A stretch of 64,000 nucleotides of DNA from an uncultured Candidatus Saccharibacteria bacterium (GCA_964560525.1 CAZLLO010000001.1:78651-142650), one strand, 5' to 3'; shown: positions 1-25,132, counted from the stretch's first letter. Translations and numbers: made by a program. The notes: generated from the letters alone by a model not told the origin.

Positions 1-801
1 TGAGATTACAATTTTCTTTTTATCTTTATTCAACCATGCGGCCCACCAACTGAATGTGCTATTAGCAATTATTGAATGCTTGCATATACTCATCAAGAAA
101 ACATCTAAAATTGGATCGTTTACATTTCCTTCCACATACTTGATTGGGACATCGGATTTTAGATTCTTCTTTGCCCATTCAATATCGTCAGAGAATACAA
201 ATATCTTGATATCTCCAACTTTATTTTTAAGATACTGTATTGCTCGGTTGTAATAATCAAGAGTTATGATTCCTTGTTGTGCAGCTACTTCTGGATTAGA
301 AACGTAGTCCGCTCTTCTAATATGGAGAAAAACTGAATTGCAATTGTTTATTTCTTCTTGCAATTCTTTATCTGCTTCTTTCGCATATTTACTCAAATCA
401 AAGGATGTCGCTATGTCTTCTGTGTACTTCGAGAAATACTTTTGAGAAAACCAATGACCATCAAGAACAATGTCTTTTGTATTTAATGCCTTTTTAACTA
501 ATTTTTCATCATAGATAGGATCTTGATTGTCTATCTTTTCTATTTTCTCAAATCTTCTTCCAAAATATTTCAATATACTAATCAACCTACTCATTTTGAA
601 AGGAAGTAATATTCCTTTGATTTTGAAATACCCAAGTTTGTACATTCTGCTAGCTTTGTTTTTTCCAAAAGCATCAGCATAGCTTTCTAAGCTTTTATCA
701 TCTATGAAGAGTAATTGTTTCTTCTCTATTGCTAGAGCTCTTGCAAAGGCATATTGGAACATTTGATTCCCCAATGCTCCCCTTAATTTGAGTATTATCA
801 T
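1..801 (-). CDS. alpha-1,2-fucosyltransferase, GT11 family. Partial: N-terminus at 801, C-terminus runs past the window start.
   Basis: Minus-strand ATG at 801. N-terminus reads MIILKLRGALGNQMFQYAFARALA, the GT11 motif I. Near the C-terminus is GSTFSWWAAWL, the GT11 motif III. No stop codon before position 1. Confidence 0.75.
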   Translation of the reverse strand, partial: MIILKLRGALGNQMFQYAFARALAIEKKQLLFIDDKSLESYADAFGKNKASRMYKLGYFKIKGILLPFKMSRLISILKYFGRRFEKIEKIDNQDPIYDEKLVKKALNTKDIVLDGHWFSQKYFSKYTEDIATSFDLSKYAKEADKELQEEINNCNSVFLHIRRADYVSNPEVAAQQGIITLDYYNRAIQYLKNKVGDIKIFVFSDDIEWAKKNLKSDVPIKYVEGNVNDPILDVFLMSICKHSIIANSTFSWWAAWLNKDKKKIVIS

Positions 802-819
802 CTTGGGTTATATTTAATA

Positions 820-2055
820 CTATTTATCATTTTCATATTCCCACGAGGAATCTATATGGATAATTCCATCTGCATAATTAATTCCTCCAAGTCTTTGGCT
901 TTTGTTAACAATTTCAAACTTTAGGCCTGGTTCTACATAGTCATATAGCTCTTTTCCATCTATACTTCCCAACCAGAAATTCAAATTATATACTCCTGAA
1001 AAAAGGTTTAAATCCTTAATACTTAATTTGAAATTGCAATCTTTACTAACAAAGGTTTTGCTAAAAACTTTAGAGATCAAGATGCCATCATCCCTAGAAA
1101 GTATAACGGAAATGAATGCAGTATCATCATGCTTACGATTTACGATTTTCCCCTTAACAACAATTTCCTCTTCTTCGTGAAATGAGCTTACCGCATTATC
1201 TTTATTATCAAAAAGTTTCAAAGTCTCAAATATCCATTTTTTATTCCCAGGTCTATTCTCTGCTTCATCAATAGTACCCTCAAGCATAGATTTTCCTAAT
1301 GACATATACTCTCGTATAACGTCTCTCGTGTCTCCAATCATTTTAACTTCACCATGATCTAAGAGAATTGTACGATTACATAACTTCTGAATAGCTCCCA
1401 TATCATGACTTACAAAAAGAATAGTCCTACCACTTTTCTGAGTAACTTCACCCATTTTACCTAAGCATTTCTTTTGGAATTCTGCATCACCAACCGCTAA
1501 TACTTCATCAATAACTAAAATGTCTGGTTCTAAATGTGCGGCTACAGAGAATGCTAACCGAACCTGCATCCCAGAGGAATATCGCTTAACAGGCATATCC
1601 AAAAACTTCTCTACACCAGAAAATTCTACAATTTCATCAAACTTCGCCTCAATCTCCTTCTTTCTCATACCCAAAATAGCACCATTGAGATAGATATTTT
1701 CTCTTCCTGTTAATTCTGGATGAAATCCAGTACCTACTTCTAGTAAGGAAGAAATTCTTCCATTAAGACGAACTTCTCCTTCTGTAGGTTCTGTAATTCT
1801 AGAAAGTATTTTTAAAAGAGTACTCTTTCCCGCACCATTCCTACCTATGATACCGATAACCTCACCTTCTTCTACATTAAAGGAAACATTTCTTAATGCC
1901 CAGAATTCACCCTTCTTTCTAAACTTCTTTCCTCTAAGTAAGTTCATCGGAACCTTTGCGGCTTTCACAATCAAATCTCTAAGTGCAAGGTATTTTTCTC
2001 TTTCTCCAAGAGAATACTTCTTACCTAAATTTTTTACTTCTACTGCGTATTTCAT
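820..2055 (-). CDS. wzt: ABC transporter ATP-binding protein for polysaccharide/O-antigen or teichoic-acid export (Wzt/TagH type), with a C-terminal extension that probably binds carbohydrate
   Basis: Walker A is GRNGAGKST. The signature is the SSGMQVRLAF variant. Walker B is ILVIDEVLAVGD. About 160 extra C-terminal residues follow. It sits directly upstream of an ABC-2 permease. Confidence 0.8.
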   Translation of the reverse strand: MKYAVEVKNLGKKYSLGEREKYLALRDLIVKAAKVPMNLLRGKKFRKKGEFWALRNVSFNVEEGEVIGIIGRNGAGKSTLLKILSRITEPTEGEVRLNGRISSLLEVGTGFHPELTGRENIYLNGAILGMRKKEIEAKFDEIVEFSGVEKFLDMPVKRYSSGMQVRLAFSVAAHLEPDILVIDEVLAVGDAEFQKKCLGKMGEVTQKSGRTILFVSHDMGAIQKLCNRTILLDHGEVKMIGDTRDVIREYMSLGKSMLEGTIDEAENRPGNKKWIFETLKLFDNKDNAVSSFHEEEEIVVKGKIVNRKHDDTAFISVILSRDDGILISKVFSKTFVSKDCNFKLSIKDLNLFSGVYNLNFWLGSIDGKELYDYVEPGLKFEIVNKSQRLGGINYADGIIHIDSSWEYENDK

Positions 2056-2057
2056 AT

Positions 2058-2876
2058 CTATATTATATCTGCAAAATATTTTTCTACTTTCTTAAAATAC
2101 AGGTATCCTGTGATGAAAATAACTAACGTAATACCAATTGAGATGCCAAGGGTACTCCAATTTACTGCAACATTACCTAATATGGCAGCACGATGTGCCT
2201 CCACTAAACCACTCAGAGGATTTAATGATAGTAACCACTGGTATTTTCCAGCCAATGATACAGGATAGATAACTGGTGTTATATACATCAATGTTTGAGT
2301 TATGAATGGGAGTGCGTACTGTACATCTCTGTATTTTACATTTAATGCAGAGAACCAGAGTCCTATACCCACACTTAGTAACCACGTTACAAGAAGTATC
2401 ACAGGTATTAACAGCATCGAAAGAGTAAGTGGAAAATGGTAGTAAATCATCAAACCAAATACTACTAAGAATGAAATACCATAATCTATTAAGCCAACAA
2501 TTGTTGAAGAGGCAGGAATAATCACTCTTGGGAAGTAAACCTTGGTTATGAGTTTAGAATTTCCAATCATACTGTTGCTAGCTTGTGCTACTGCCGCAGA
2601 AAAATACGACCAGAGTACTAATCCAGAGTATGAAAATATTGGGTATGGAACTCCATCAGATGGAATATTCGCAATTTTTCCAAAAAGGAAAGTAAATACG
2701 ACCATTGTTAACAAAGGACGGATTATAGCCCAAAGAACACCTATTACTGTTTGTTTATACCTTACCTGAAATTCTCTAAAAGAAAGTACTCCAAAAAGTT
2801 CTCTGTAATTCCATAACTCTTTAAAGTCAAAATTCGCAAGTCCTTTTTTTGGTTTAATAACCGTTATTTCTTTCAT
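2058..2876 (-). CDS. wzm: ABC-2 type polysaccharide export permease (Wzm/TagG-like)
   Basis: 272 aa with six predicted TM helices. It is translationally coupled to the wzt ATPase gene. Confidence 0.75.
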   Translation of the reverse strand: MKEITVIKPKKGLANFDFKELWNYRELFGVLSFREFQVRYKQTVIGVLWAIIRPLLTMVVFTFLFGKIANIPSDGVPYPIFSYSGLVLWSYFSAAVAQASNSMIGNSKLITKVYFPRVIIPASSTIVGLIDYGISFLVVFGLMIYYHFPLTLSMLLIPVILLVTWLLSVGIGLWFSALNVKYRDVQYALPFITQTLMYITPVIYPVSLAGKYQWLLSLNPLSGLVEAHRAAILGNVAVNWSTLGISIGITLVIFITGYLYFKKVEKYFADII

Positions 2877-2907
2877 AATCTGAGAATCATTTTAACACAC
2901 TTTAAGA

Positions 2908-4746
2908 CTATAGTTCTACTACATCAAAGATGTACAAAACCTTCCCTTTCATACTTACTAGCTCTTTTAGCTGAAGCCATTTACACGCTTTTAAATCTCT
3001 TAACCATTCCTGATCTTCAAGTGGATATCCTTTTAAAGTAGAAGCCAGGAAGAAAACTTTCTTGATATTGTAACTTTCTAAAGAGGTTTTAAAACTTTTA
3101 AGATTGTACAAATCAAAACCATACCCATATTGAGTTCCAAATGTTTTTAAATCACGAATATCTTTAACTCCTTCTCCAAGTTTCCATTTCCATTCTACTG
3201 GCATATATGTTTCTCCATTTAAAGTAGTAAGTACATTTAAATTATCATAGCTATTAATCCAATATGGCTCATTCTTTGGCAAGAAATTGGCAACTGTTTC
3301 TACTTCTCGGTTCTTACCCCAATTTATAGCCTCACCTATCTGTCCTTGAGTATATGAAAACAAAACTGCCACACCAAACGCAGCTCCAGAAATTAAAGTC
3401 AAAAATATATATTTAAAATATTTTAATCTTGGTTTAAAAAATCTAACACATAGGATAGAGAAAAGAACTGTTTCTAAAATTACTTTTTCAAGAATATATG
3501 ATGATTCAAAGAAGAGGCCTGCAATTGTAAATATGCCTGTGCCTATTAATATCGCTAATCTTTGTTTTTGAGTAAATTTAGAGAAGAAGAATACATATAT
3601 AGCCATGATGGCGATAGCAGGAACAATAGGAAGAAGATATCGACCATGAGAAGCTCTAAGGATATAGAAGAGAATCCATACAACACATAGCAGGCTTGAG
3701 AACAGAAAGACTTTTTCTTCTTTTACTTTCTTTCTTAAATAGTTAATCAAAACTATTACACTGGCATAAAGGACTGGGAACATCACGACTTTAGAAACAG
3801 AAAGAAATGAGAATGTACGAGGATAGAGAATTTTTCCAAGATAGGAGATAAGGATGTTTAGAATGGAATTAAAAGATATCTGCCCATTTGTAGCAGAGAC
3901 TGTTTCGGAGGTTACTGCCTGTATTGTTTTCCCTCCATCTACAAGATTAAGTGTCGTTAAACCAGTTTCAAAGTGCTTTATAGTGTATTGAAGGCTATTT
4001 TGTATTAATCCAACCGTAGAAGCTAGGTACATATTTACTGGGATGATATTTGTTAGAAACATTAGTACTACCCATATCACAGATGGTAAGAAAACAATAA
4101 AGCAATGCTTGATTATATTCCACAACCTCCTCCAGAATACTTTTTCTTTAGATGTAATGAACAACCAAAGAATATACACTATTACGAATACTAAAAAGAC
4201 ATATTCTTTAGTATCTAAAAGCAAAACAAAAATGATAGACATATACCATTTGTTCCAATTTTTAAGAACCGCCCACATAAAAAGAACAATTATTAAAAGC
4301 GATGGAATTTCTCTGAGATATGTCGGCATACTTATTACGAAATGGAAATTTGTCATTAGAAATGCTGTTGCAAAGAAGGCAAACCAACCATTCTTTAAGA
4401 ATGTTTTAACCAATTTGTAAAAAAAGAAACCTACTCCAATGCCAAGGATTATGTTATATATTGTTACAACACCCACTGAAGGGCCTGTTATGAGAAATAT
4501 TAAGGCAGGAGGAAGCTTAAACAAAAAACCATGTAAACCTACACCATAGCTGCCAATCCATGTTCCATTACGGATGAGTTCAGCCATCAAAGATGTTTCT
4601 TTGTAGTACAAAGCCTCATCCTTAATCATATCTCTAAAATTAGAAAGCAAAATCATTGCTACAAAGTAAAAACCCAAGAATATATAGAATATAATATCTG
4701 GATTCTGTTTGAGCTTATTAATTATGTTGGTCAAGCTAATCTTCAT
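2908..4746 (-). CDS. Large polytopic membrane protein, putative GT-C fold glycosyltransferase (ArnT/PMT-like). Paralog A of a tandem pair.
   Basis: About 12 TM helices. An acidic KDEALYY motif lies in the first extracytoplasmic loop, the usual DE/DD signature of GT-C enzymes. Conserved blocks such as GxHGFLFKLP, YPRTFSFLSV and EWKWKL are shared with the next gene. Confidence 0.5.
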   Translation of the reverse strand: MKISLTNIINKLKQNPDIIFYIFLGFYFVAMILLSNFRDMIKDEALYYKETSLMAELIRNGTWIGSYGVGLHGFLFKLPPALIFLITGPSVGVVTIYNIILGIGVGFFFYKLVKTFLKNGWFAFFATAFLMTNFHFVISMPTYLREIPSLLIIVLFMWAVLKNWNKWYMSIIFVLLLDTKEYVFLVFVIVYILWLFITSKEKVFWRRLWNIIKHCFIVFLPSVIWVVLMFLTNIIPVNMYLASTVGLIQNSLQYTIKHFETGLTTLNLVDGGKTIQAVTSETVSATNGQISFNSILNILISYLGKILYPRTFSFLSVSKVVMFPVLYASVIVLINYLRKKVKEEKVFLFSSLLCVVWILFYILRASHGRYLLPIVPAIAIMAIYVFFFSKFTQKQRLAILIGTGIFTIAGLFFESSYILEKVILETVLFSILCVRFFKPRLKYFKYIFLTLISGAAFGVAVLFSYTQGQIGEAINWGKNREVETVANFLPKNEPYWINSYDNLNVLTTLNGETYMPVEWKWKLGEGVKDIRDLKTFGTQYGYGFDLYNLKSFKTSLESYNIKKVFFLASTLKGYPLEDQEWLRDLKACKWLQLKELVSMKGKVLYIFDVVEL

Positions 4747-6536
4747 TATCTAATAACTTTGAAAATATATATTACCTTGTTCTTTAAATTTACAGTTTCT
4801 ATTAGTGAAAGCCAATCCGCTTTAAGATATGATTCCAATCGATTTTGACGTGCGAAAGGATAATCCTCAACAGTAGAAACTGCAAGTACAACCTTCGTAA
4901 TACCTTTATTCATAACGCTCGTCTTATCTGCATCAATTGTTTTCCCAGAGGTAACATATGATGTCAATTTATCAAGCATCTTAAGTGTTTCCTTTCTGGG
5001 GACCCACGCACTGAGTTTCCATTTCCATTCAGGGTCATATCGGTTATCTCCCCTGTATACCTTTACTAGAATATCCCAACCTGCGTCATTCATTAAGATT
5101 TTTTCATCCTTACTAAACAGAGAAACTACCCTTTTTACTTCATAATCATTTCCAAAAAGTAAATACTGATGTATTTGACCGTTGGAGTAGAAGAAAAAAG
5201 CAATAACGGAAAATGTTATAGCGCTAAGGGTTAGGAGAACAGCAATGTATAGCTTTTTGAATTTTTCGTGGAAGAAGAAGTAGAAGATATATATTAAAAA
5301 TACAACAGCGTTCAGAGCTATTTTTATCCACAAATAGTCTACCTCAAAGAATAATCCGCAGATGGTTAATACTAATGTAATTAGGAAAATAGGTATGAAT
5401 TTTTTCTTTTCTTTTACAACATCCTTTAGGAATATTATGAAGAAGAAAAACACTACTGGAAGTATTGGGAATAGATATCTATCAAAAGAAGCTCGGACTA
5501 TGAATATTGTAATAAATGACCACAGAATAAGAGCAAGTGAGATAAATAAAGGGTCTTTCTTCTTGATAGCATTTTTAAACATCATAATACTGGTTAAAAG
5601 TGCAGGGAAAAATATAATCTTTGGAACGGAAAGAAATGAGAAACTTCTAGGATATATTAGCTTACCAAAATATTCCGTTGCAGTATTCAAGATTCTTCCT
5701 ACAAACGTATGTTTATCAAATAGCTGTGGTATTTCATTGGCATCCAAATCTATACGATTTACTGTCGCGGTTTCTACCTGAAAATGTTTTACATTGTATG
5801 CCAAACCTCCATCAGTAACACCTGGTATTACAGAAAGCGCATATGAATTTATCGGGATTATCGATGTCGTTAGCATCAATGTTATGAAGATTACGGTTGG
5901 GAGAAGAATTTGTAAGTATGATTTTACATATGCCCAAAGTGTCTTCAGGTTAAATCCTTTCCATTCATGGAACAATACATACAACAGATATGCAGGAAGT
6001 ATCATGTACATTACATATTCTTTAGCATCAAACATTAACATTAGGCTTAACCCTATCATCCAGTATGGCTTCTTGTAAGCTATCAAATTTAAGAAAATGA
6101 TAACCATTAAAAATACAGGAACTTCTCGCATGTATGTAGGTAAATTGAGGATGAACTGGAAGTTTGCAAAAAGCAAAATAGTACTTAGTAAAGAATATGT
6201 TTGGTTAAAATATTTTTTTAGAAATGTATAGAAGAAATACAAAGAGACACAGGCTAACAAAATGTTCCATATCGTAGCTACAGTTAATGATGGTCCTGTT
6301 AAAAGAAATGCTAAAGCAACTGGAAGCTTAAATAGAAAACCATGAGTACCTACTGCATAATTTCCAATCCATTCTCCTCGTTTTAATGCTTCGGTCATTA
6401 TAGATGTCTCCCAAAGGTAAAGATCATCATCTAGAGTTGCATTCTTGAAAAACAAGAAAAAGATCCCTAAGAGTAAACATAAGGAGATTAGTATATATAT
6501 TCCATATTTTTCTAGAAATTCTTTAATAGGTTTCAT
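4746..6536 (-). CDS. Large polytopic membrane protein, putative GT-C fold glycosyltransferase. Paralog B, in tandem with 2908-4746.
   Basis: Same architecture as paralog A. Loop 1 has a DDDLYLWE acidic motif. Blocks GTHGFLFKLP, YPRSFSFLSV and EWKWKL are shared with paralog A. Start chosen at the internal Met (MKPIKEF), giving an ATGA overlap with the upstream GT4 stop. The ORF-track start is 6587. Confidence 0.5.
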   Translation of the reverse strand: MKPIKEFLEKYGIYILISLCLLLGIFFLFFKNATLDDDLYLWETSIMTEALKRGEWIGNYAVGTHGFLFKLPVALAFLLTGPSLTVATIWNILLACVSLYFFYTFLKKYFNQTYSLLSTILLFANFQFILNLPTYMREVPVFLMVIIFLNLIAYKKPYWMIGLSLMLMFDAKEYVMYMILPAYLLYVLFHEWKGFNLKTLWAYVKSYLQILLPTVIFITLMLTTSIIPINSYALSVIPGVTDGGLAYNVKHFQVETATVNRIDLDANEIPQLFDKHTFVGRILNTATEYFGKLIYPRSFSFLSVPKIIFFPALLTSIMMFKNAIKKKDPLFISLALILWSFITIFIVRASFDRYLFPILPVVFFFFIIFLKDVVKEKKKFIPIFLITLVLTICGLFFEVDYLWIKIALNAVVFLIYIFYFFFHEKFKKLYIAVLLTLSAITFSVIAFFFYSNGQIHQYLLFGNDYEVKRVVSLFSKDEKILMNDAGWDILVKVYRGDNRYDPEWKWKLSAWVPRKETLKMLDKLTSYVTSGKTIDADKTSVMNKGITKVVLAVSTVEDYPFARQNRLESYLKADWLSLIETVNLKNKVIYIFKVIR

Positions 6537-7717
6537 TTCAAGACTTCTGTATATGTATTTAGTATCTCTTTGGATATGTTTTCCCAAGAGAATTGTTGTG
6601 AATATTGTAATATCTTTTGGCTATTCCACTTTGTATTTAAAGATTTTAATATATTCTTTGCCAGAAATACAGAATTACCTGGATTTGTAAGTGAACCATA
6701 AACATAAGAAGATATTATTTCTGGAATACCACCTACGTTGGTTCCTATGAAAGGTTTACCACATGCTAGGGATTCAAACATAACAGTCGGATTCCCTTCG
6801 TTAAGGCTTGAAGAAGCAAATATATCACAAGCTCCAAAGTAATCCATCAATTTATCATGTGGTTTCTTTCCAAGTAATTTGTAATTATCTTCAAGCTTAA
6901 GATTCTTGATTTGTTGTTTTAACACAAACTCTAAAGGACCTCCCCCTATATGTAAACATAGGATATTGGGATATTTTTCTTTTACTATTTTAATCGCGTC
7001 TATTAGATATTCATAGCCTTTCACTTCCTCTAGGTTCCCTATTGTAAGGATTATTTTGCTATCCAATGGCAAATTTAATTTTTTCCTGCTTTCTGCATGA
7101 GGTTTGAAATAGAAGAGTTCTTTTGAATAACCATTTGGGATTACATTAATATTATTGATTCCAAGCTTCTTTAGATAACTACTATTTTTCCCACTTACTG
7201 TGATTACTCTATCAGCACTTACATATACTTTCTTTAACGCATTGTTAAATCGTTTGTTTCTAAACGGAAGATCGTAAACATCATAACCATGAGCAGTAAT
7301 TATTAAGGGCTTTTTATACACGTCTTTTACTTTCATACCAACATAACCTGCACTCCAACCAAAATGTGCATGAATTAGATCGAAAGAGATATTCCTCTGT
7401 TTTAATATCCTCAAAACAGCATTTGCATGTTGTCTTCCTACCCAATAGTAAGCCCATTTAAATGGTAAGTACCAAAGAGATACGGGTATGACTTCAATAT
7501 TATTAGGTCTGTTTGATAAATCTATAGAATATTTCTTTGCATACTTCATTCTTGATCTGAGAAATGGTATTGGAAGATATCTTGAGAACTCGGCAACTGG
7601 TTGATATCTCACCAATACATACACCTTACGAAATTGCTTTGAAATGATTTCTACCTGATCTTTGATAAAGCTGTTATATGTATGACTAAGTACAAGCAGG
7701 TCTTTATCCTCAAACAT
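6533..7717 (-). CDS. Glycosyltransferase family 4 (GT-B fold)
   Basis: C-terminal EGNPTVMFESLACGKPFIGTNVGGIPEII matches the GT4 E-x7-E nucleotide-sugar motif. A GGGPLE segment is also present. Confidence 0.8.
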   Translation of the reverse strand: MFEDKDLLVLSHTYNSFIKDQVEIISKQFRKVYVLVRYQPVAEFSRYLPIPFLRSRMKYAKKYSIDLSNRPNNIEVIPVSLWYLPFKWAYYWVGRQHANAVLRILKQRNISFDLIHAHFGWSAGYVGMKVKDVYKKPLIITAHGYDVYDLPFRNKRFNNALKKVYVSADRVITVSGKNSSYLKKLGINNINVIPNGYSKELFYFKPHAESRKKLNLPLDSKIILTIGNLEEVKGYEYLIDAIKIVKEKYPNILCLHIGGGPLEFVLKQQIKNLKLEDNYKLLGKKPHDKLMDYFGACDIFASSSLNEGNPTVMFESLACGKPFIGTNVGGIPEIISSYVYGSLTNPGNSVFLAKNILKSLNTKWNSQKILQYSQQFSWENISKEILNTYTEVLK

Positions 7718-7719
7718 TA

Positions 7720-8760
7720 TTACTTAACTTCCTTTTCAAGATAATCTACCCACCATTTATTAATATCTTCTTTATCTGACAAGAGCTTTTGTAATTTTTT
7801 CTTTCCCTCTTCTTTCAAATTCTTGTTTGCCATTAATTCATCAATCTTCTTTTTTGTCTTCTCTACCATATGCTCTCTATCAGTTATTGAGTACATTAAT
7901 TTGTAGACCTTTTCCATCTCTTCACTTGCTCCAGAAGTTAACTCACTTGTGAAGATTGCATGTATACCCATAACAGCACACTCCGCACCCATTGTTAAAC
8001 CATCTCCAACAAAAAGTTGAGCATATGACATGATACTGTGCAATTTGGTATGGGGGACCTTAATGATGTATTTATCAAATTCAATTGGAAGTATCTCTTC
8101 AGAAGATACTAATACTCTTCCATATTTTTCCAGATGCTTTATAAGTTGCATCTTTTGATCATTTGTAAAACCTTTGTGTCCTAAATCATGGCTAGCATTC
8201 CAAGCTACGAACCTTACAAATGTAAATCTATCTCCTTCTTTCATTCCTACTAATTCCAAATCCTTTGGATTAGGTTTGAAATAGTGAGGATGAAGATAGA
8301 AAAGCTCTTTGAAAGTCTCAACTCTCATCTGTTTCTTACCTAAATCAGTTCTGTAAAACATAGGAGTCAGTATTTTGTATGAAAATAGCTTTGAGAAGAA
8401 AAGAGATTCAACTGATCTTTCTGTATCGCAGTACGCAATATTCTTCTTTCCTATTAGAAATGCCGTCATAGCCATCATTGGAGAAGGTCTACCAATGAGA
8501 ACATCGGCCTTAAACTTCACCGCTTCTATACAATGTCTAAATGTAGAGGTTACCAATATGAACGCTTTATCTATCTTGTTCTTTCCTGTTGTATTTCCAA
8601 TTATTGTATATGGAATTTTGTATTCATCTAGTATCTCCCAGTTCCTATCTTTCTTAATTACCAATACCTTTACCTTATGTCCCCTTTGTTCCAGTAGCTT
8701 AATAATATTGTGGAATTGATGAGCCCATGCGGGATGAGAAATGGATATAAGGACATTCAT
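7720..8760 (-). CDS. DUF354-like GT-B fold protein, epimerase- or glycosyltransferase-related
   Basis: N-terminus ISISHPAWAHQFHNIIKLLEQRGHKV resembles the DUF354 signature (xNxPHVhfF..iIkeL..GHeV). 346 aa. Confidence 0.45.
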   Translation of the reverse strand: MNVLISISHPAWAHQFHNIIKLLEQRGHKVKVLVIKKDRNWEILDEYKIPYTIIGNTTGKNKIDKAFILVTSTFRHCIEAVKFKADVLIGRPSPMMAMTAFLIGKKNIAYCDTERSVESLFFSKLFSYKILTPMFYRTDLGKKQMRVETFKELFYLHPHYFKPNPKDLELVGMKEGDRFTFVRFVAWNASHDLGHKGFTNDQKMQLIKHLEKYGRVLVSSEEILPIEFDKYIIKVPHTKLHSIMSYAQLFVGDGLTMGAECAVMGIHAIFTSELTSGASEEMEKVYKLMYSITDREHMVEKTKKKIDELMANKNLKEEGKKKLQKLLSDKEDINKWWVDYLEKEVK

Positions 8761-8765
8761 TTTTA

Positions 8766-9725
8766 TTATTTTTTGAATTTAGAGTAGTGTTCTTTCTTGG
8801 TATAGTAAAGAATCTTTTCTTGGTTATTCAGCATCCTTCCCAACATATCGGAAAGTACTGCGACTATTAGTATAATTAGAGAGAGAGAGATCAAATATAT
8901 TCCTGTAAACCCTACAAATTTGTATGGTGAGAAATCTCCTGTTGTGACCCAATGTATGAGCAAGAAAAGAACACATATTAAACCGATAACAAATGGGATT
9001 GCAGAAAGCAAGCCAAAGAACTTCATTGGAGCGAAATCTCTAAATGCTCTTAAGATGTTGAAAGTTGAAACTGTAATAAAATTCAAAAGACTTTTTACAA
9101 CACGAGATTTTCTTCCATTGTAATATTTGATTGAAATTGGAACTTGAGCAATATCCAAATTCTTCGAGGCCATTAACTGAAATGATTCTTGTGTATACGT
9201 ATACTTACTATTGATATTCATATGTAGCATTGCTTCTCTGTCATATGCTCTGAAACCACAAGTCACATCTTGGTATTTATTTTCTGTTAGCTTACTTACT
9301 ACATATGCCCCAAGTTTATTACCATAGAACTTACCGTTTGACATATTTTCTGGTTTGCCACTCTTTGAGAATCTATTTCCAGCGACAAAATTAGCCTTCT
9401 CATCCAATATCGGTTGTACTAACAAGGGAATTTCTTCTGGAAGAAACTGTAGATCTCCATCAATATTAACTGCAATATCCGCGCCTAATTCCAAAGCTTT
9501 GTTAATTGCCAATTGAAAAGAATATGCTAGCTTCTTTTGTTTTAGGTTTGAAAGTACAAGGGCTTTATTATCTTTTGCTACTTTGACAGTATTGTCCGTG
9601 CTTCCATCATCTATAACTACCTTAACTATCTCGTCTATACCTGTAATTTTACTTGGAATTCTACTTAGCAATTCACCAATTGTGTTCTCTTCGTTTAGGC
9701 AGATTGAAAAAACAACTAATTTCAT
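8766..9725 (-). CDS. GT2 polyprenyl-phosphate sugar transferase (Dpm1/GtrB/ArnC-like)
   Basis: N-terminal GT-A domain with VVIDDGSTDNT and NIDGDLQ (DxD) motifs. Two C-terminal TM helices, which is typical of lipid-carrier sugar synthases. Confidence 0.75.
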   Translation of the reverse strand: MKLVVFSICLNEENTIGELLSRIPSKITGIDEIVKVVIDDGSTDNTVKVAKDNKALVLSNLKQKKLAYSFQLAINKALELGADIAVNIDGDLQFLPEEIPLLVQPILDEKANFVAGNRFSKSGKPENMSNGKFYGNKLGAYVVSKLTENKYQDVTCGFRAYDREAMLHMNINSKYTYTQESFQLMASKNLDIAQVPISIKYYNGRKSRVVKSLLNFITVSTFNILRAFRDFAPMKFFGLLSAIPFVIGLICVLFLLIHWVTTGDFSPYKFVGFTGIYLISLSLIILIVAVLSDMLGRMLNNQEKILYYTKKEHYSKFKK

Positions 9726-9741
9726 TTTTTTAATATTTAAA

Positions 9742-11016
9742 TTATCTTCCGATACCTCTGTATATTATACCTGATTCTTCAATTACTTTTTTGTCTAGCT
9801 TATTCATACCATCCACCACAACTTTAACATTGGGGTATTTCTTTAATAATGTTCCTAATTCTTTAAAAGGCTTATGTGCAGTACATAGTACAACTGCAAC
9901 AGAATCTTTAAGTGCATCATCTAATGATTTTACATTGCTCATGGTGTCTACATATGGATCATATATCCTTAAATCAGCACCCATGGAAAGAAGAATATCT
10001 TTGACAATAAGGCATGGACTTTCTCTAAGGTCCCCAATATTTTCCTTGTAGCTTAATCCTAAAAGTGCAATCTTTGTTCCCTTGATTGATTTCTCTATCT
10101 CATTCAAAGCTACTTGTAATCTCTCTACAGTATATTGTGGCATGCTATTGTTTACCTCTCGTGCCATTTTTAAGAATTTGTGATCAAATCCACTTTTTGC
10201 CGCTCTATTTATAAGGTAATATGGATCCACCGCAATGCAATGTCCCCCAACACCTCTTCCAGGCCAATGTGGCATAAATGCAAAAGGTTTGTTTGAAGAT
10301 GCCTTAATAGTTTCGATTAAATCTATACCCATTGCATCAAACGATTTCGCTAACTCATTAACATACGCAATGTTAATATCTCTAAAAGTATTTTCAATTA
10401 TCTTAGTCGCCTCAGCAATCTTTAGTGAAGGTACTGGATTTATCTCTCCTTTGAGGAATGATCTGTAAAAATCAGCTATGTTCTTTGCTTCACTTACGGG
10501 GTCTGCCCCGATATTTCTTGGGATATTGTATACATTCCATTTAGGATCACCTGGATTTATCCTTTCTGGACAATGTGCTAATACAAAATTTCCTTTTTTC
10601 AACTTCGCATTATTCTCTAGTAGTACAGGATACACGACTTCTTCGCAAGTACCTGGATTAACTGTAGATTCCAAGATTACAACGGCACCTTTTTTCAAGT
10701 ATTTCGCTGCTAGTTTTGATGCTTCAATAACTGGGATATAGTCTGGTGTATGATCATCAAGTACAGGTGTAGGAACACAGATTATGAAATAGTCTGAATC
10801 CTTGAGAATATCTTGATCTGTTGAGACATTTATATCTACTGTTTTTAAATCTTCTGCGCATGTTTCATCATCTATAGGACAAACTCTCTTACTAATTTTA
10901 TCAACTTTGGGCTGACTTAAATCATAGCCACAAACATTGTATTTCTTACTCTTTGATATAGCACAAAGAAGTGGTAAACCAACATATCCTAGACCTATTA
11001 TCGAGACTTTTTTCAT
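9742..11016 (-). CDS. UDP-N-acetyl-D-glucosamine/mannosamine 6-dehydrogenase (WbpA/WecC/Cap5O family)
   Basis: N-terminal Rossmann motif IIGLGYVGLP. Catalytic-Cys motif GGHCIAVDPYY. 424 aa. Confidence 0.8.
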   Translation of the reverse strand: MKKVSIIGLGYVGLPLLCAISKSKKYNVCGYDLSQPKVDKISKRVCPIDDETCAEDLKTVDINVSTDQDILKDSDYFIICVPTPVLDDHTPDYIPVIEASKLAAKYLKKGAVVILESTVNPGTCEEVVYPVLLENNAKLKKGNFVLAHCPERINPGDPKWNVYNIPRNIGADPVSEAKNIADFYRSFLKGEINPVPSLKIAEATKIIENTFRDINIAYVNELAKSFDAMGIDLIETIKASSNKPFAFMPHWPGRGVGGHCIAVDPYYLINRAAKSGFDHKFLKMAREVNNSMPQYTVERLQVALNEIEKSIKGTKIALLGLSYKENIGDLRESPCLIVKDILLSMGADLRIYDPYVDTMSNVKSLDDALKDSVAVVLCTAHKPFKELGTLLKKYPNVKVVVDGMNKLDKKVIEESGIIYRGIGR

Positions 11017-11078
11017 TGTTTTTCTGAGTTAAAATATAGTGTCACCATTATATACTCTCTTTTTAAGAGTTAGCAAAT

Positions 11079-12377
11079 CTACTTAAAAGTCGATATCGCA
11101 TTAGCACCTTTTGAGAGTCTATAAGATATGAAATAGCATATTACATAAACAATAGCGGTTGATAGCGACCATACCAAAAATCCTAGATATGCGTCCCCAG
11201 AGAAGAATCCAACTGTAAATCCGATGAGTAAAGAGGCAAGTTTCATTAATTCAAACCATATCTTGATCTGTTGCTTTTCAATAACATAAAGGACATCCGT
11301 GATTGGATCTACAACAAATCTAGTGAAATACATCAATGTAAATATTCTAATATATTGTCCTGCAGGTTCCCATTGTGCACCAAACACAAAGGGTACTAAC
11401 AATGGGGCAAATATGAATAATAATGCGAAAGGAATGATACCTATTAAGAAGAGTGTCTTACTCGTTTGTTTTACTACTTCTACACATGAGCCCTTTTCTC
11501 GATACTGTTCTGAAGCTTCTTGCTTTAAGACATCTCCAAAAGAAGAAGTCAAAAACCACACAGGAGATCCTAATATCTTATCTGAAAGCGAATAATACCC
11601 TGCAGAAACTGCACCAAAGACTTTGTTTAAAAATAGGTTAGGAGAAAGGAAAGTAAAATTCTTAAGCAAATCTGCAAATAATGAGAACTTTGGGAATTTT
11701 GAATATACTCTCATTAATTCGAATATCGATTCTTTTGTATTCTCCTTGAAAAACGGCAATATATCCTTACGCAACATTATTACAAAAAGGATTGTACCCG
11801 CTAAGTAGCTAGCTAAATATGAATACATCAAACCACCTTCAGTATATCCTAGAAATCCAGATCCTAATCTCGTGATTACAAGGAAACCTGCTTGTACTAT
11901 TATATTAATAGCTATCTCTTTGTATCTCTTTTCTCTAAGAAAATAGTAGAAAAATGCCTCATATACACCAATAAATAAAACACTAGCTGCCAATATCCAT
12001 AGATAGTTGTATAACAGAGAAATATTTAAGACTTTAAATATTGAATCTCCAAAGAATAAGAGAAGAATTACGAAAACAATTGTACTTAGGCATGTAAGTA
12101 AGATACTAATCCATACCAATTTCTTTGCTTTCTCTTGCTCTTTTGGAAGCATTATAGCTAAGCAATATCTTCCATTGGAAAGCATCGCTATAATAGAAAC
12201 AATCGTTACATAGGCACCAAAATATCCAAATTCTTCAGGTGAATATATTCTAGTAAACAATGGTGTTAGAAGAATAGGAACAGCTTGAGCAAAAAATCTC
12301 CCACTTAACATAATAGAGGTGTTTTTTCTTTCTGTTAGCTTGTTCTTAAGTTTTGCAAATATTGTTTTTATTTCCAT
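11079..12377 (-). CDS. wzx: Wzx-type oligosaccharide flippase (MOP superfamily)
   Basis: 432 aa with about 12-14 TM helices. Located inside the glycan gene cluster. Confidence 0.55.
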   Translation of the reverse strand: MEIKTIFAKLKNKLTERKNTSIMLSGRFFAQAVPILLTPLFTRIYSPEEFGYFGAYVTIVSIIAMLSNGRYCLAIMLPKEQEKAKKLVWISILLTCLSTIVFVILLLFFGDSIFKVLNISLLYNYLWILAASVLFIGVYEAFFYYFLREKRYKEIAINIIVQAGFLVITRLGSGFLGYTEGGLMYSYLASYLAGTILFVIMLRKDILPFFKENTKESIFELMRVYSKFPKFSLFADLLKNFTFLSPNLFLNKVFGAVSAGYYSLSDKILGSPVWFLTSSFGDVLKQEASEQYREKGSCVEVVKQTSKTLFLIGIIPFALLFIFAPLLVPFVFGAQWEPAGQYIRIFTLMYFTRFVVDPITDVLYVIEKQQIKIWFELMKLASLLIGFTVGFFSGDAYLGFLVWSLSTAIVYVICYFISYRLSKGANAISTFK

Positions 12378-14389
12378 AAGTATAGATTCAATTTAGTAAC
12401 TCCATAATAGTATCTATTTGGTATTATTATATACCTACAAAGAGGAATATCCTGAGAATGCCCATTCATTTTAAAAAATACATCCTCACTCCTATTACAG
12501 TGTACAAAATAATTGTTCTCAAACTCTACTGTTTGTAATTTCTCTAAACCCTTTAAATCCAATCCAGGATCAGCTGCAAGGATGTAAACATCATGATACT
12601 CTCGTTTCAAATTCTTAACTTCTGTATTTATCAAATCATTTTCTGAGGGTATCTGCACTATATCTACTCCTAAATAATATTTCAATGGAAAAATAATTTG
12701 GTTAAAAGCATCAAAATTACTATTTATTACCAATAAGACATCGTTTTCTGTAATCAAAGATTGCATCTGTTTTAACTCTGTGATTTTCAATCCCTCAGTA
12801 TTTCTTAACTGTAGTACAGAAAAGAAACAAGAATATATTATGCTAAGTACAAGGACTATGGAAATTAAGATCTTCTTCTTTTTTGTATTGAAAATATCAA
12901 CCAAATACAAAGATATTAAGATGATGCATAGTGGTATAAGTTCACCTAGTTGGTATCTTACATAGTAGTAATAGTATGGAATACCTTTTAGTATTCCCCA
13001 ACAATACACAGCAAATATAATTAAAAGAACTAAGAGAAGCGTAACTTTAATATCTTTTCCATATTTCTTTCTAAAATGAAAAATACTAAATGGGAGCAGA
13101 AGAAATAACGGAGGAGATATTAAAAGGAATGTTGCTAAGAAATTAAGCTGTTTAAAGTTTGAAAGACTTATATCTGAAAACAATGCATTATGGTTTGAGA
13201 TAAATGTAGTATAGATATATGAAATAGACTCATATCCTACTAACCCAATCAAAATACAAATTGCAAAGATAGAAATATATTTAAGATTCTTTTTAACAAA
13301 CGTCACAAGCATTTCTTTTATCCTTCCCTTTCTCAGCAACCATAATATCAGTATGTAAACAGCAAAAAAGAAAAGTAATATCCATACCAATTCAATTCCT
13401 AGAAATCGTTTGCCTATTATTAAATGAAAGAGCTCAGGGAGAAAAATAGCGTAGAAAACATACGATAAGGACAAGGAAGCTAACCATATACCACAATATG
13501 TAAATAGATATTTTCGAAGCTGATTATCTTTGTTAAATAGCATCAATACTAAAGGGATTAAAAGAATAACAGGAAGATACAATAATGCAGTCATTCTAGT
13601 GTAGAAGAGTACTGCTATAGTACATAAAGACATTACTAAATCTGAAACCTTTGTTTGCTTCTCCTTATACCCATTGTAGAATTTAATTAGGTAGTAAAAG
13701 GACAGTAAAAACAATGTCATCGAGATTATCTCTGTAAGAGGAACTCTTGAGAAATACACATGAGCAGGATTCACAGCTACTAATAAAGAGGCCAACAGTG
13801 CAACCTTTTTATTTTTTCCCGAAATCTCATACGCAAAGAGATATGTCGCAGCTATGGATAGTAAACTAAATACAGTAAGAATAGATGCCCTATTATCCGA
13901 GCCAAATAGCTGTCCACCTATTGCTAACCATGACGGCAATACAGGATAGAAAGGCATAACATACTCAGATGAAGCACTGTCTTTTAGTTTAATTCCCAAC
14001 AAGGTATTAGCTTCATCATACAGATTCTTCAGCTCATCAGGTAAAGATTTTCTTACGTTATCGACAATATACAAAGAATGATTTTCCTCATACTGTTTAG
14101 ACAAAGAGATATATGTACCCTGGTCTTGCCCACCTGTTAAGTATAAATTGGGATTTAGTCTAAACCCTACTCCTATAATTAAAACGATTAAAAATAACCA
14201 TGAGAATCTTGCATCTTTCCAAACAATTTTTATTTTTAATAGAGATAGTATTAATACTTCAAAAGGAATCGCTATTAACAATGAAATAAGTGGATAGAAT
14301 ACATTTAAGATTAAAAGCAATACATTGAGAATGCTTACCGTGCAGATATATACAATTAATATTTCAAAGACATTAATCTCTCTTCTCAT
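12368..14389 (-). CDS. Large integral membrane protein (673 aa), possibly GT-C-like glycosyltransferase or polymerase
   Basis: More than 12 TM helices and a soluble C-terminal domain of about 120 aa. Loop 1 is rich in acidic and polar residues (GGQDQGTY). It is co-directional with the glycan cluster. No motif I can name with certainty. Confidence 0.3.
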   Translation of the reverse strand: MRREINVFEILIVYICTVSILNVLLLILNVFYPLISLLIAIPFEVLILSLLKIKIVWKDARFSWLFLIVLIIGVGFRLNPNLYLTGGQDQGTYISLSKQYEENHSLYIVDNVRKSLPDELKNLYDEANTLLGIKLKDSASSEYVMPFYPVLPSWLAIGGQLFGSDNRASILTVFSLLSIAATYLFAYEISGKNKKVALLASLLVAVNPAHVYFSRVPLTEIISMTLFLLSFYYLIKFYNGYKEKQTKVSDLVMSLCTIAVLFYTRMTALLYLPVILLIPLVLMLFNKDNQLRKYLFTYCGIWLASLSLSYVFYAIFLPELFHLIIGKRFLGIELVWILLFFFAVYILILWLLRKGRIKEMLVTFVKKNLKYISIFAICILIGLVGYESISYIYTTFISNHNALFSDISLSNFKQLNFLATFLLISPPLFLLLPFSIFHFRKKYGKDIKVTLLLVLLIIFAVYCWGILKGIPYYYYYVRYQLGELIPLCIILISLYLVDIFNTKKKKILISIVLVLSIIYSCFFSVLQLRNTEGLKITELKQMQSLITENDVLLVINSNFDAFNQIIFPLKYYLGVDIVQIPSENDLINTEVKNLKREYHDVYILAADPGLDLKGLEKLQTVEFENNYFVHCNRSEDVFFKMNGHSQDIPLCRYIIIPNRYYYGVTKLNLYLWK

Positions 14390-15644
14390 ATATTGAATCT
14401 AATACTTTAATACCGTCACTCCAATCGTATCTTTCGACAACTTTCTTTCTACCATTCTCCCCTATCATTTTTCGTTTAACCTTATCTTCAAGAAGATCTT
14501 CTAAGGTTGAAGTTATCGAATCAATATCGTTAAAGTTCAACAGGTAACCGTCATTACCATCTGAAACAATTTCCGACAAAGCATCGTTCTTACATGCAAG
14601 TATAGGTTTACCATATGCCCAAGCTTCAAGGTATACAATACCAAATGAGTCCGTTTTAGAAATCATAGAAAAAATATCTCCAGCATCAAACAGGTCCCAC
14701 TTCTCCTCTTCTGATATATCATCTATATTCAATATATTATTTCGATATTTCTCCTCTACCCCTTCTAAGTACTGGTTGAAATCAGAGCTGTATTGCCCAC
14801 CAAAAACCAAATGACATTTTATTCCTTTATCCCAGATCTTTTTCATACTCTCTATTAGATTAATATCTCCTTTCTCAAAACTCTTTGAGCCAACTCGAAA
14901 AACAATTGGATATTTTAGATTATATTTCTCTCTAAATCTTTTCCCATCTCCATTCATTATTTTATCCACAAAAATACCCTGCCCTACAAGTACAAATTTA
15001 TCATCATCCAAGATAACTCCATTTGTATTACAAAATTCCTTAATTGTTTCTTTTTCCGCTAAGGTATTCAAGAAGATTTTACTTGCATACTGAAAGAATG
15101 GTACTGCAGTTTTCTTAAAATATTTTTTTCTGAGTGGATCCTTCTTGTTCTCTCCTGTATGAAAAGCTGGTGCGATTATGTATGGGATGTTATATTTTCT
15201 GGCAATCAAATAACCAACATAGAATAGAAAATAATATGGTGTAGCAGAAACTGTAATATATGCATAATCAGAAAAGTCAGTTTTATCTATAGCATCCAAC
15301 ATATCATATGAAGTCGGACATGATGCCAGGTTAGCTATTTTGAAATTAGGAAATCTATCAAATAATACTCTTACCGCCTTGTTAATATATCTATTTTTCA
15401 TAAACCCTTTTCCTACTGCAAACCTTCTTACATGTACTCCTTCAATATCTTCTTCTGGTTTTAAAACCTCATCACTACCTAGGTCCCATAAAGTTTCTGG
15501 TTTATATGCATTCGTAGTCCATATATTTACATCATATCCCAATTGTTTATGCTGATATTCAGAAAGAACTTTCATAAAAAGCTCTGCTCCTCCCTTTGCT
15601 GGATAGTATCTTTGTATGATATTTAGTACTTTGGTTTTACTCAT
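14373..15644 (-). CDS. Glycosyltransferase family 4
   Basis: N-terminal RYYPAKGGAE and C-terminal LEAWAYGKPILAC...EIV (E-x7-E) are GT4 motifs. Confidence 0.75.
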   Translation of the reverse strand: MSKTKVLNIIQRYYPAKGGAELFMKVLSEYQHKQLGYDVNIWTTNAYKPETLWDLGSDEVLKPEEDIEGVHVRRFAVGKGFMKNRYINKAVRVLFDRFPNFKIANLASCPTSYDMLDAIDKTDFSDYAYITVSATPYYFLFYVGYLIARKYNIPYIIAPAFHTGENKKDPLRKKYFKKTAVPFFQYASKIFLNTLAEKETIKEFCNTNGVILDDDKFVLVGQGIFVDKIMNGDGKRFREKYNLKYPIVFRVGSKSFEKGDINLIESMKKIWDKGIKCHLVFGGQYSSDFNQYLEGVEEKYRNNILNIDDISEEEKWDLFDAGDIFSMISKTDSFGIVYLEAWAYGKPILACKNDALSEIVSDGNDGYLLNFNDIDSITSTLEDLLEDKVKRKMIGENGRKKVVERYDWSDGIKVLDSIYEKRD

Positions 15645-15741
15645 TTTCTTAATTGTAGATTCTAGAAATTATTATACCCTTTTCTACAAATGTCTGTACA
15701 AATTTGTTAGTATATATGTAGTAAATTATCATTTTTTTAAT

Positions 15742-16884
15742 ATGGTGATACATAGAAAGATATTGGGCTTTTTAATAGTGCCATTCTTGTTAATGGGACT
15801 TTCATTATTAGCTGCAAAACCTGTAGATGCAGCAGAGTTTCATTTCAAAGGATATACATTAGCACAGGATCAAACAGTGAATGATGATGTATATGTGTCA
15901 GGTGATACTGCAGATATCAAAGGTGTTATTAATGGTGACTTATTTGTATGTGCAGAGTCAGTTACAATCTCTGGCACAGTATCTGGTGATATCTATACCG
16001 TAGGTTCCAAGGTTACATTTGAGGGAAATAGTTATGGAAACGTATATATGTTAGGAAACAATCTAAACTTGGAAGGTAGTATTAAAGGAAATCTATACAC
16101 GATGGCAGCTATGATTAATTCCTCTGTTGCTGTAGAAAAAGATTTCACAAATATATCACAAGACGGGACACTAAAGGGTTCTGTTGCAGATGATACAAGA
16201 GTAATTGCGAATAATATCTCTATTGATACTGTAATTGGTGGAGATTTGATTTCGATAGCAAGAATAGATGATGTTGAGAAAGGAAATGTTTCAGGAAATA
16301 TATATAATTGGGGAACAATTAAAGGTTTAGCAAAAGCTCAAGGTGTTGATTTAGATGCTGAGAAACCAAATATTGAGGTTTCTACTTCTCAGAGAGTTTC
16401 CGCCAACTTATTGACAGGATTAATTAGCTTCATTGGATTAGGTTTAGCGGGATATTTCTTGATAACCCTAAGCCCTGTTAAAACTGGGAAGATTGTTTCT
16501 AAGATATCTGGTAGTGTTGGAGATTTCTTCAAGAGTCTAGGTATTGGCTTCTTAATAGCAGCATTAATTCCTATTCCTCTTCTCTTGCTTTTTGTCTCTA
16601 TATTTGGTACATATCTAGGATTATTAATCTCAGGATTGCTTCTATTCTTATGTGTCTTTGGAAGGATATGGACAGAAGTTGCACTTGGAAAAGAGATTCT
16701 TTCTCTTTGTAAAGTTAAAGGATACAGACCTTTTAAATCTTTACTTATTGGTAGAGTTATATCTGTAGCAATAGCTTTTGCACCTATTGTAGGCGCTATA
16801 TATTCCTTAGTACTAACACTAACCTCTCTTGGAGCATTTGTGAGGGTGAAGTTTGATTATTGGAATATTAGTAAAAAGAAATAG
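15742..16884 (+). CDS. Secreted or membrane-anchored beta-helical repeat protein (bactofilin/DUF583-like repeats) with a C-terminal multi-TM domain
   Basis: Signal/TM segment ILGFLIVPFLLMGLSLLAA. Tandem repeats of about 18-20 aa of the form GD-[IVL]-Y / GN-[IVL]-Y, with S-G-D-I and K-G-N-L turns. Four to five C-terminal TM helices. Start placed at the ATG at 15742 rather than the ORF-track 15616. Confidence 0.45.
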   Translation: MVIHRKILGFLIVPFLLMGLSLLAAKPVDAAEFHFKGYTLAQDQTVNDDVYVSGDTADIKGVINGDLFVCAESVTISGTVSGDIYTVGSKVTFEGNSYGNVYMLGNNLNLEGSIKGNLYTMAAMINSSVAVEKDFTNISQDGTLKGSVADDTRVIANNISIDTVIGGDLISIARIDDVEKGNVSGNIYNWGTIKGLAKAQGVDLDAEKPNIEVSTSQRVSANLLTGLISFIGLGLAGYFLITLSPVKTGKIVSKISGSVGDFFKSLGIGFLIAALIPIPLLLLFVSIFGTYLGLLISGLLLFLCVFGRIWTEVALGKEILSLCKVKGYRPFKSLLIGRVISVAIAFAPIVGAIYSLVLTLTSLGAFVRVKFDYWNISKKK

Positions 16885-16887
16885 AAA

Positions 16888-16921
16888 GAAAAAGGGAAGC
16901 TTGGCTTCCCTTTCTTTTTTA
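16888..16921. terminator. Bidirectional intrinsic terminator between the convergent genes 15742-16884 and dsbA-like
   Basis: Hairpin AAAGGGAAGC-TTGG-CTTCCCTTT, followed by a T-run on the plus strand and preceded by an A-run (a T-run on the minus strand). Confidence 0.6.
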
Positions 16922-25058: not shown

Positions 25059-25132
25059 TCGGGGCGACACGACTTGAACGTGCGACCTCTTGCACCCCAT
25101 GCAAGCGCTCTAGCCAACTGAACTACGCCCCG
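25059..25132 (-). tRNA. tRNA-Pro (anticodon GGG)
   Basis: Read on the minus strand: CGGGGCG-TA-GTTC-AGTTGGCTA-GAGC-G-CTTGC-ATGGGGT-GCAAG-AGGTC-GCACG-TTCAAGT-CGTGT-CGCCCCG. The acceptor has 7 bp, and D-arm, anticodon arm and T-loop are canonical. CCA is not encoded. Confidence 0.8.

Follow-up and report, generated by a model that had tools for sequence, protein, structure and literature searches.

The closest described systems come from streptococci and lactococci. The streptococcal group A carbohydrate (GAC) locus combines the ATP-binding cassette (ABC) exporter GacDE with GacIJKL, in which a family 2 glycosyltransferase (GT2) makes a polyprenyl-phosphate sugar, the Wzx-family protein GacK flips it and the GT-C protein GacL adds it outside (PMC9574508). 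The lactococcal cwps locus carries the ABC exporter RgpCD together with WpsA/B, WpsG and WpsI/J (PMC9574508, PMC10821137) and constitutes a 'dual-chain' system with two GT-C proteins, one polymerizing the flipped oligosaccharide and the other attaching the resulting chain to the ABC-exported rhamnan (PMC10821137, PMC9574508). Here we describe a glycan gene array at one end of a 64,000-nucleotide stretch of DNA, the window, from an uncultured Candidatus Saccharibacteria bacterium (GCA_964560525.1 CAZLLO010000001.1:78651-142650), which encodes both a Wzm/Wzt ABC exporter and a Wzx-like flippase. An initial annotation made from the sequence had regarded this pairing as unusual, but it is documented in both GAC and lactococcal cwps (PMC9574508, PMC10821137) and recurs in a related locus (L057); because GacDE/GacIJKL and cwps have the same layout, the pairing is explained and not anomalous. 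A locus with both exporters is what would be expected where polymer export is coupled to extracytoplasmic decoration or a second chain.

With moderate confidence we read the array as one co-oriented operon of at least 19 genes (~23.5 kb) directing the synthesis of a cell-envelope glycopolymer by two linked routes. The reading is built on the observed gene order, on family and fold assignments and on the conservation of a cassette among relatives. The organism is Patescibacteria/Dojkabacteria-like, in line with the candidate phyla radiation (CPR) affinity proposed for it initially. To our knowledge, experimental information on the envelopes of Patescibacteria/CPR bacteria is almost entirely lacking, and a literature search returned no paper specifically on such glycan loci in Patescibacteria or Dojkabacteria. 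Surface glycans are likely central to host attachment by CPR episymbionts and to phage resistance, and the locus supplies a testable parts list comprising a GT-C family missed by Pfam and NCBIfam, a functional context for DUF354 and a compact, heterologously expressible cassette.

The gene array and its products

Twelve consecutive open reading frames (ORFs), numbered g1 to g12 and all on the minus strand, fill positions 1-15644 of the window as determined by ORF calling. The genes are tightly packed, as originally noted, with intergenic distances of -17 to +62 nt and several overlapping start and stop codons. The 15.6-kb extent first given for the array holds for these twelve genes but not for the array as a whole, which extends beyond position 1. 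A public contig of identical sequence (L002, Logan SRR8925774) runs on from there with seven further genes on the same strand encoding, in order, a GT2, a GT4, a GT2, a 667-amino acid GT2-GT4 fusion, an S-adenosylmethionine (SAM) methyltransferase (DUF268/Methyltransf_23), a GT2 and a GT4, giving a total of at least 19 genes and ~23.5 kb. On the right the array stops at a divergently transcribed gene for a membrane protein. For g5 the correct start is 6536 and not the TTG at 6587. The G+C content of the array is 0.328 compared with 0.346 for the rest of the window, a trivial difference, and the notion of a horizontally acquired island of foreign DNA was rejected.

Families were assigned by Pfam and NCBIfam profile searches, which bore out nearly all of the initial calls, with weaker results for g4 (no match), g5 (25.5 bits) and g7 (18 bits). 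The ABC exporter is encoded by g2 and g3. The g2 product (820..2055) is a Wzt ATPase with the C-terminal carbohydrate-binding domain that had been proposed for it (ABC_tran 86.7 bits; Wzt_C 32.7 bits, above the gathering cut-off of 30.4) and a Walker A motif, GRNGAGKS. Its PDB matches to Wzt, TagH and TarH range from 1e-49 to 1e-70, the best being full-length Aquifex aeolicus Wzt (PDB codes 8dku/7k2t; 2e-70) aligned over residues 33-393 with the carbohydrate-binding domain included, and its NCBIfam matches are TagH- and galactan-Wzt-like. The adjacent g3 (2058..2876) encodes a Wzm ABC-2 permease (ABC2_membrane 69 bits; NCBIfam galactan Wzm/RfbD-like), so that an ABC-2 permease and a Wzt-type nucleotide-binding domain are both present, as in a Wzm/Wzt exporter. 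The g10 product (11079..12377) is a Wzx-like flippase of the MOP family (Polysacc_synt_3 79.9 bits, Polysacc_synt 54.9 bits; NCBIfam MOP flippase) without a match in the PDB sequence/profile search, and by family membership it is the predicted flippase (GtrA or Wzx family) of a GtrABC/GacIJKL-type system.

Three large membrane proteins are encoded in the array and none of them falls in a non-glycosyltransferase family. The g4 product (GTCa; 2908..4746) has 12 transmembrane (TM) helices and no Pfam, NCBIfam or PDB sequence match. Its AlphaFold2 model, built from 38 homologs, has a predicted local distance difference test score (pLDDT) of 88.5 and a predicted template modeling score of 0.89, and the top Foldseek matches of this model against the PDB are all GT-C enzymes, with ArnT first (PDB code 5f15, 1.2e-7) followed by STT3, ALG9, Pmt4, ALG12, DPY19, PglB and EmbA/B. 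The GT-C fold of the family is thus revealed only by structure comparison, PDB sequence/profile searches being empty. The neighboring g5 (GTCb; 4746..6536) encodes a tandem paralog of the same fold, 35% identical to g4 over 573 amino acids (E 6e-103), as had been suggested from the sequence, with a PMT_2 score of 25.5 bits that is just below the cut-off of 26.1. Directly after TM helix 1 both proteins carry acidic residues (Asp-43-Glu-44 in g4, DDD in g5), which resemble the ArnT/PMT catalytic loop at the usual GT-C catalytic position; at least 90% of the aligned sequences retain Asp-43. Searched against 1.84 billion representatives, a profile of the g4/g5 family recovers only 265 clusters, and it matches no sequence in the PDB; the two proteins therefore form a small, separate and uncharacterized family inside the GT-C fold. 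The third protein, g11 (GTCc; 12368..14389), is a GT39/GT83-type glycosyltransferase with a PMT_2 score of 28.9 bits, above the cut-off; its relatives carry PF02366/PF13231 (PMT/PMT_2) and are annotated 'glycosyltransferase family 39'. It has no detectable BLASTP relationship to g4 and no match in the PDB sequence/profile search. A polytopic GT-C transferase is accordingly represented, by the g4 model with its similarity to ArnT, STT3, ALG9 and Pmt4 and by the PMT_2 domain of g11.

The g8 product (8766..9725) is a predicted polyprenyl-phosphate sugar synthase of the DPMS/GtrB/ArnC/AglJ type, with a GT-A (GT2) domain (PF00535) and two C-terminal TM helices (residues 239-257 and 273-291). Its PDB matches are only DPMS (PDB code 5mlz), ArnC and GtrB, the ArnC/GtrB-like character initially assigned to it, and its best NCBIfam match is AglJ (106 bits) followed by Dol-P-hexose transferase, PpgS and ArnC. 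The sequence DGDLQ at residue 89 corresponds to the DxDxQ motif highlighted for DPMS and WpsA (PMC10821137). The remaining member of a four-component system, a small membrane activator of the GacJ/WpsB type, was not found in the array, and there is no room for such a gene because no intergenic gap exceeds 62 nt.

The NDP-sugar 6-dehydrogenase encoded by g9 (9742..11016; TIGR03026 360.7 bits, above cut-off) is closest to UDP-N-acetylmannosamine (ManNAc)/N-acetylhexosamine (HexNAc) dehydrogenases, as expected from the annotation, with PDB matches to 4r16 (1.5e-68), Cap5O (1e-63) and a GalNAcA dehydrogenase (1e-55) compared with ~1e-27 for UDP-Glc dehydrogenases. It scores below the equivalog cut-offs for a UDP-ManNAc 6-dehydrogenase of the WecC/Cap5O type (276 against 750 and 235 against 459). 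The substrate would be a UDP-HexNAc, the nearest solved structures being those of ManNAc and GalNAc(A) dehydrogenases. Two cytoplasmic GT4 enzymes are encoded by g6 (6533..7717; Glycos_transf_1 125.6 bits), which is TuaC-like (NCBIfam TuaC 156.8 bits, below the equivalog cut-off), and by g12 (14373..15644; Glycos_transf_1 90.9 bits), the first gene of the array, whose ortholog occupies the same position in the related loci L006 and L057. At the other end g1 (1..801) encodes a predicted member of the GT11 α-1,2-fucosyltransferase family (PF01531 111.5 bits) with the HxRRxD motif present as HIRRADY at residue 160. Its C terminus is cut by the window start, with 267 of 290 amino acids inside, and the complete 290-amino acid gene is present in L002. 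GDP-fucose genes were found neither in L002 nor among 20 larger ORFs examined elsewhere in the window. In the relatives L029 and L053 a GDP-mannose 4,6-dehydratase gene adjoins the GT-C gene, and L029 also has a GT11 gene, so that a 6-deoxyhexose such as fucose is indirectly supported for this type of locus.

The g7 product (7720..8760) is a GT-B-fold enzyme with an AlphaFold2 model of pLDDT 92.4. Its own DUF354 score of 18 bits is below the cut-off of 22, yet the assignment is sound because 30 of 37 family members match DUF354. Fold matches of the model are split between GT1 glycosyltransferases and UDP-GlcNAc 2-epimerases. Sequence profiles favor a glycosyltransferase, with weak matches to GT28/GT4 N-terminal domains in 17 of the 37 relatives, no match to Epimerase_2 (PF02350) in any of the 37 and an hhalign probability of 0.3% against a bona fide epimerase compared with 10% against a GT4. 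In addition, a DUF354 ortholog coexists with a genuine Epimerase_2 protein, in the absence of a dehydrogenase, in the related locus L058. For these reasons g7 is probably a glycosyltransferase and an epimerase role is a minority option; on the same profile data and co-occurrence, the proposal that g7 supplies the missing UDP-GlcNAc 2-epimerase was judged less likely.

A conserved cassette in related loci

A GT-C profile scan of species-representative genomes identified 54 loci onto which the proteins of the array were mapped by homology. Candidatus Dojkabacteria (WS6), other Patescibacteria and WWE3 account for most of these loci, a few belong to other phyla, and the closest is 67% identical. 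A block of genes encoding the dehydrogenase, GT2, DUF354, GT4, Wzx, GTCa and GTCb recurs across Dojkabacteria, WWE3 and other Patescibacteria with or without Wzm/Wzt. The GTCa/GTCb tandem is adjacent in 19 of the 54 loci and Wzx directly adjoins the GT-C pair in 14, whereas in seven loci the GT-C, GT2, DUF354 and GT4 genes instead adjoin genes for Wzm, Wzt, a methyltransferase and a GT2. Three loci, L027, L055 and L037, have the GT-C/GT2/DUF354/GT4 genes beside Wzm-Wzt-methyltransferase genes in the absence of Wzx.

Three long metagenomic contigs illustrate the range of arrangements. The whole two-route layout is repeated over 16 genes in L057, with both Wzx and Wzm/Wzt, whereas L059 has the seven-gene Wzx cassette alone between unrelated genes. 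In L058 a GtrA-family gene (7494-7952) lies directly upstream of GT2-DUF354-GTCa-GTCb. An interim observation that no relative has both exporters was an artefact caused by short contigs and by sampling species representatives, as L057 has both. A public-contig search with Wzt and Wzm as queries returned only one 2.3-kb contig, and two housekeeping ORFs had no entry there.

Several further genes accompany these loci. L006 has a radical-SAM gene (3724-5247) between GTCc and the dehydrogenase. MptE-like (PF01973) genes accompany methyltransferase genes (L006 17826-18710, L027 6756-7508, L057 17119-18045) and may encode alternative chain-cap enzymes. In L027 the MptE-like gene immediately follows Wzt, and in L057 it comes two genes after Wzt. 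Positions 1-4560 of L058 encode a multidomain methyltransferase-GT4-GT2 protein of more than 1624 amino acids. Five relatives (L017, L027, L055, L058 and L059) carry secA downstream of the GT-C cassette at a distance of a few kb; the 64-kb window has no ORF of SecA size (~980 amino acids), the longest to the right of the array being 517 amino acids.

The proposed routes and competing readings

In the favored reading the ABC-dependent Route A would use the cytoplasmic GT2, GT4, GT11 and GT2-GT4 fusion enzymes to build a polymer on a polyprenyl carrier. The SAM methyltransferase, the GT11 enzyme or both, being encoded in the operon, would probably cap the polymer, and Wzm/Wzt would export it with the C-terminal carbohydrate-binding domain of Wzt recognizing the cap. 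In Route B the g9 dehydrogenase would supply a UDP-HexNAc uronic acid, the membrane-anchored DPMS/GtrB-type g8 would load the first sugar onto polyprenyl monophosphate, the DUF354 protein g7 and GT4 enzyme(s) may lengthen it to a short oligosaccharide, and the Wzx-like g10 would flip the product. The g4/g5 pair and the GT39-like g11 would then transfer, and possibly polymerize, this material at the outer face of the membrane onto the final acceptor, for which the Route A polymer is the most economical candidate. By analogy with the lactococcal enzymes, the tandem g4/g5 could divide polymerase and attachment roles or act as a heterodimer. Glycosylation at the outer face from polyprenyl-phosphate sugars, as put forward in the initial annotation, is the best reading of these genes, from which we infer the carrier chemistry, the sugar identities, the pairing of exporters with substrates and the acceptor.

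No phosphoglycosyltransferase, Wzy or Wzz was found in the 12 window genes, the seven L002 genes, 20 larger ORFs from elsewhere in the window or 20 ORFs tested from related loci. A WaaL-type protein was likewise not found in the 12 window genes, the L002 genes or the ORFs from related loci, and the ORFs tested in related loci and the same 20 larger window ORFs include no LCP protein. Given that neither a phosphoglycosyltransferase nor Wzy was found, Wzx most likely moves a polyprenyl-monophosphate-linked sugar or oligosaccharide for use by the GT-C enzymes. Because the genes are tightly linked to Wzm/Wzt in the window as well as in L057, L027 and L055, the ABC-exported polymer is the favored acceptor, and protein or wall acceptors stay as rivals in view of the stand-alone cassette in L059 and the GT39-like g11.

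Several points weigh against the two-route reading. A single polyprenyl-phosphate GT2 is encoded for three GT-C enzymes, and an enzyme that would initiate Route A was not found in the window or in L002. Route B occurs alone in L059, so that its acceptor need not be an ABC-exported polymer. The g7 fold fits UDP-GlcNAc 2-epimerases as well as glycosyltransferases, only the general GT-B fold being shared, and a real epimerase occupies the same position in L017. The substrate specificity of Wzx cannot be read from sequence, and the function proposed for the GT-C family, like the scheme as a whole, is argued from homology and synteny.

The most serious competitor, a tenable but clearly less probable one, holds that two independent pathways are merely neighbors, Route B O-glycosylating proteins (S-layer, pilin or Ser/Thr-rich membrane proteins) and Wzm/Wzt exporting a separate wall polymer. 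Such a role would suit the GT39/PMT-like g11 and has a precedent in streptococci, where protein O-glycosylation by a GT2 (GtrB) and a GT-C enzyme is documented (PMC12041528). The best NCBIfam match of g8, AglJ, belongs to archaeal S-layer N-glycosylation, and Route B is found by itself in L059 and many Wzx-only loci. However, no more than 31 nt separate Wzm from the GT-C pair in the window, where the two routes are packed together, and L057 preserves this layout. In L027, L055 and L037 the GT-C/GT2/DUF354 genes adjoin Wzm-Wzt with no Wzx present, and no candidate acceptor protein is encoded in the array. A tentative proposal of about the same standing concerns the recurrent block itself, in which the dehydrogenase, GT2, DUF354, GT4, Wzx, GTCa and GTCb might form a self-contained pathway independent of a phosphoglycosyltransferase and Wzy, with a uronic-acid oligosaccharide made on polyprenyl monophosphate and an obligate heterodimer from a GT-C family not described before polymerizing it and attaching it to the wall. 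If so, the product would be a teichuronic-acid-like anionic wall polymer or S-layer glycan of CPR bacteria, and DUF354 would be a new glycosyltransferase family acting on lipid-linked glycans.

Two other explanations appear improbable. In a single pathway, one glycan would be started by the GT2 on polyprenyl monophosphate and moved to the wall by the GT-C enzymes as final ligases, with Wzm/Wzt and Wzx as alternative or redundant exporters of long and short forms. In related loci the GT-C genes do occur either with Wzx (14-18 loci) or with Wzm/Wzt (seven loci), and no phosphoglycosyltransferase, LCP protein or WaaL-type ligase was found in the loci examined, but many of these loci are truncated contigs in which the either/or pattern may be a sampling artefact, both exporters are kept in the window and L057, and known ABC-dependent polymers mostly start on diphosphate carriers. 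Marginally the least probable of all is a classical Wzx/Wzy repeat-unit pathway (O-antigen or capsule) beside the ABC one, in which Wzx would flip a polyprenyl-diphosphate unit and a large membrane protein would be the Wzy-type polymerase or ligase. The Wzx family membership of g10 and the large polytopic membrane proteins adjoining it would fit this arrangement, but these proteins have a GT-C fold or PMT_2 domain, and no phosphoglycosyltransferase (Bac_transf, MraY/WecA), Wzy_C, O-antigen polymerase or Wzz is encoded in the array or the neighbors tested. The linked two-route reading is retained as the most probable of those considered.

Surroundings of the array and likeness to described systems

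Two promoter-like sites are present on the minus strand, each matching the consensus at 10 of 12 positions and identified by this match only. One is 5' of g12 (15671..15700, TGTACA-18-TATAAT) and the other (11047..11076, TTGCTA-18-TATAAT) is in the 62-nt space between g10 and g9, the sole sizeable gap. No RNA elements were found inside the array (1-15644). The divergent plus-strand gene at its right-hand end (15616-16884) specifies a membrane protein in which a stretch of repeats weakly resembles bactofilin (19 bits, under the cut-off). Since the ATG listed for this gene overlaps the start of g12, translation probably begins at a more downstream site. In L057 the gene in the corresponding divergent position encodes a DUF8173 protein. 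A bidirectional terminator-like hairpin (16889-16915) with a 12-bp stem and T-runs on both strands lies between this gene and the convergent minus-strand DsbA-like gene at 16941-17699.

The 20 larger ORFs tested elsewhere in the window have housekeeping functions or others unconnected with glycans (RuBisCO-like, Ddl, MiaA, tRNA synthetases, RNase Y, Tgt, QueA and Fmt). The RuBisCO large-subunit homolog (20961-22367, minus strand; RuBisCO_large 297 bits) adjoins a phosphoribosyl pyrophosphate synthetase gene (19933-20964), which is consistent with a nucleoside-salvage RuBisCO of the kind described in CPR genomes. Other minus-strand features are a class A RNase P RNA (52780-53082, 153 bits), tRNA-Pro(GGG) (25059-25132), tRNA-Glu(CTC) (41865-41939) and, unrelated to the array, two adjacent ABC2_membrane_6 permease genes (34736-36353) and a gene for a secreted protein (44015-45388) with a CAP/SCP domain and a weak Ig-like (Big_13) match that stays below the cut-off.

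The array is most readily compared with the cwps locus of Lactococcus lactis/cremoris, which likewise has an ABC exporter and a Wzx-type flippase in one locus, a GT2 that starts on undecaprenyl monophosphate, cytoplasmic glycosyltransferases that extend the product and GT-C enzymes that act outside. In contrast with cwps, the array has no rhamnose (rml) genes, no WpsB/GacJ activator (g8 having its own TM helices) and no WpsH-like chain-length regulator, the GT-C pair comes from a separate small family, DUF354, HexNAc dehydrogenase, GT11 and methyltransferase genes are present, and the host is a Patescibacterium. The GAC locus of Streptococcus pyogenes shares ABC export of a backbone with a GT2, a Wzx-family flippase and a GT-C enzyme, but adds a single GlcNAc, whereas the DUF354, GT4 and three GT-C proteins here suggest an oligosaccharide or polymer. 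The Wzm-Wzt systems of A. aeolicus and Escherichia coli O9a resemble Route A in that g2 aligns to full-length A. aeolicus Wzt and a methyltransferase is in the same operon; they differ in that no WbdD-like kinase or coiled-coil terminator was identified here and the host is probably without an outer membrane or lipopolysaccharide.

The Haloferax volcanii Agl system (AglJ, AglM, AglR, AglS) and the Bacillus subtilis tua operon provide the best NCBIfam matches for g8 (AglJ) and g6 (TuaC) and share a UDP-sugar dehydrogenase, a Wzx-like flippase and the logic of a uronic-acid product. All scores are, however, far below the equivalog cut-offs, and no AglB/STT3 or TuaA/TuaE homolog is present, so that the likeness is a resemblance of parts and not membership. 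The overall design is already known from streptococci and lactococci, and the new elements are the CPR host lineage, a GT-C family missed by profile libraries, the association with DUF354 and a self-anchored GT2 that occurs without a GacJ-type activator.

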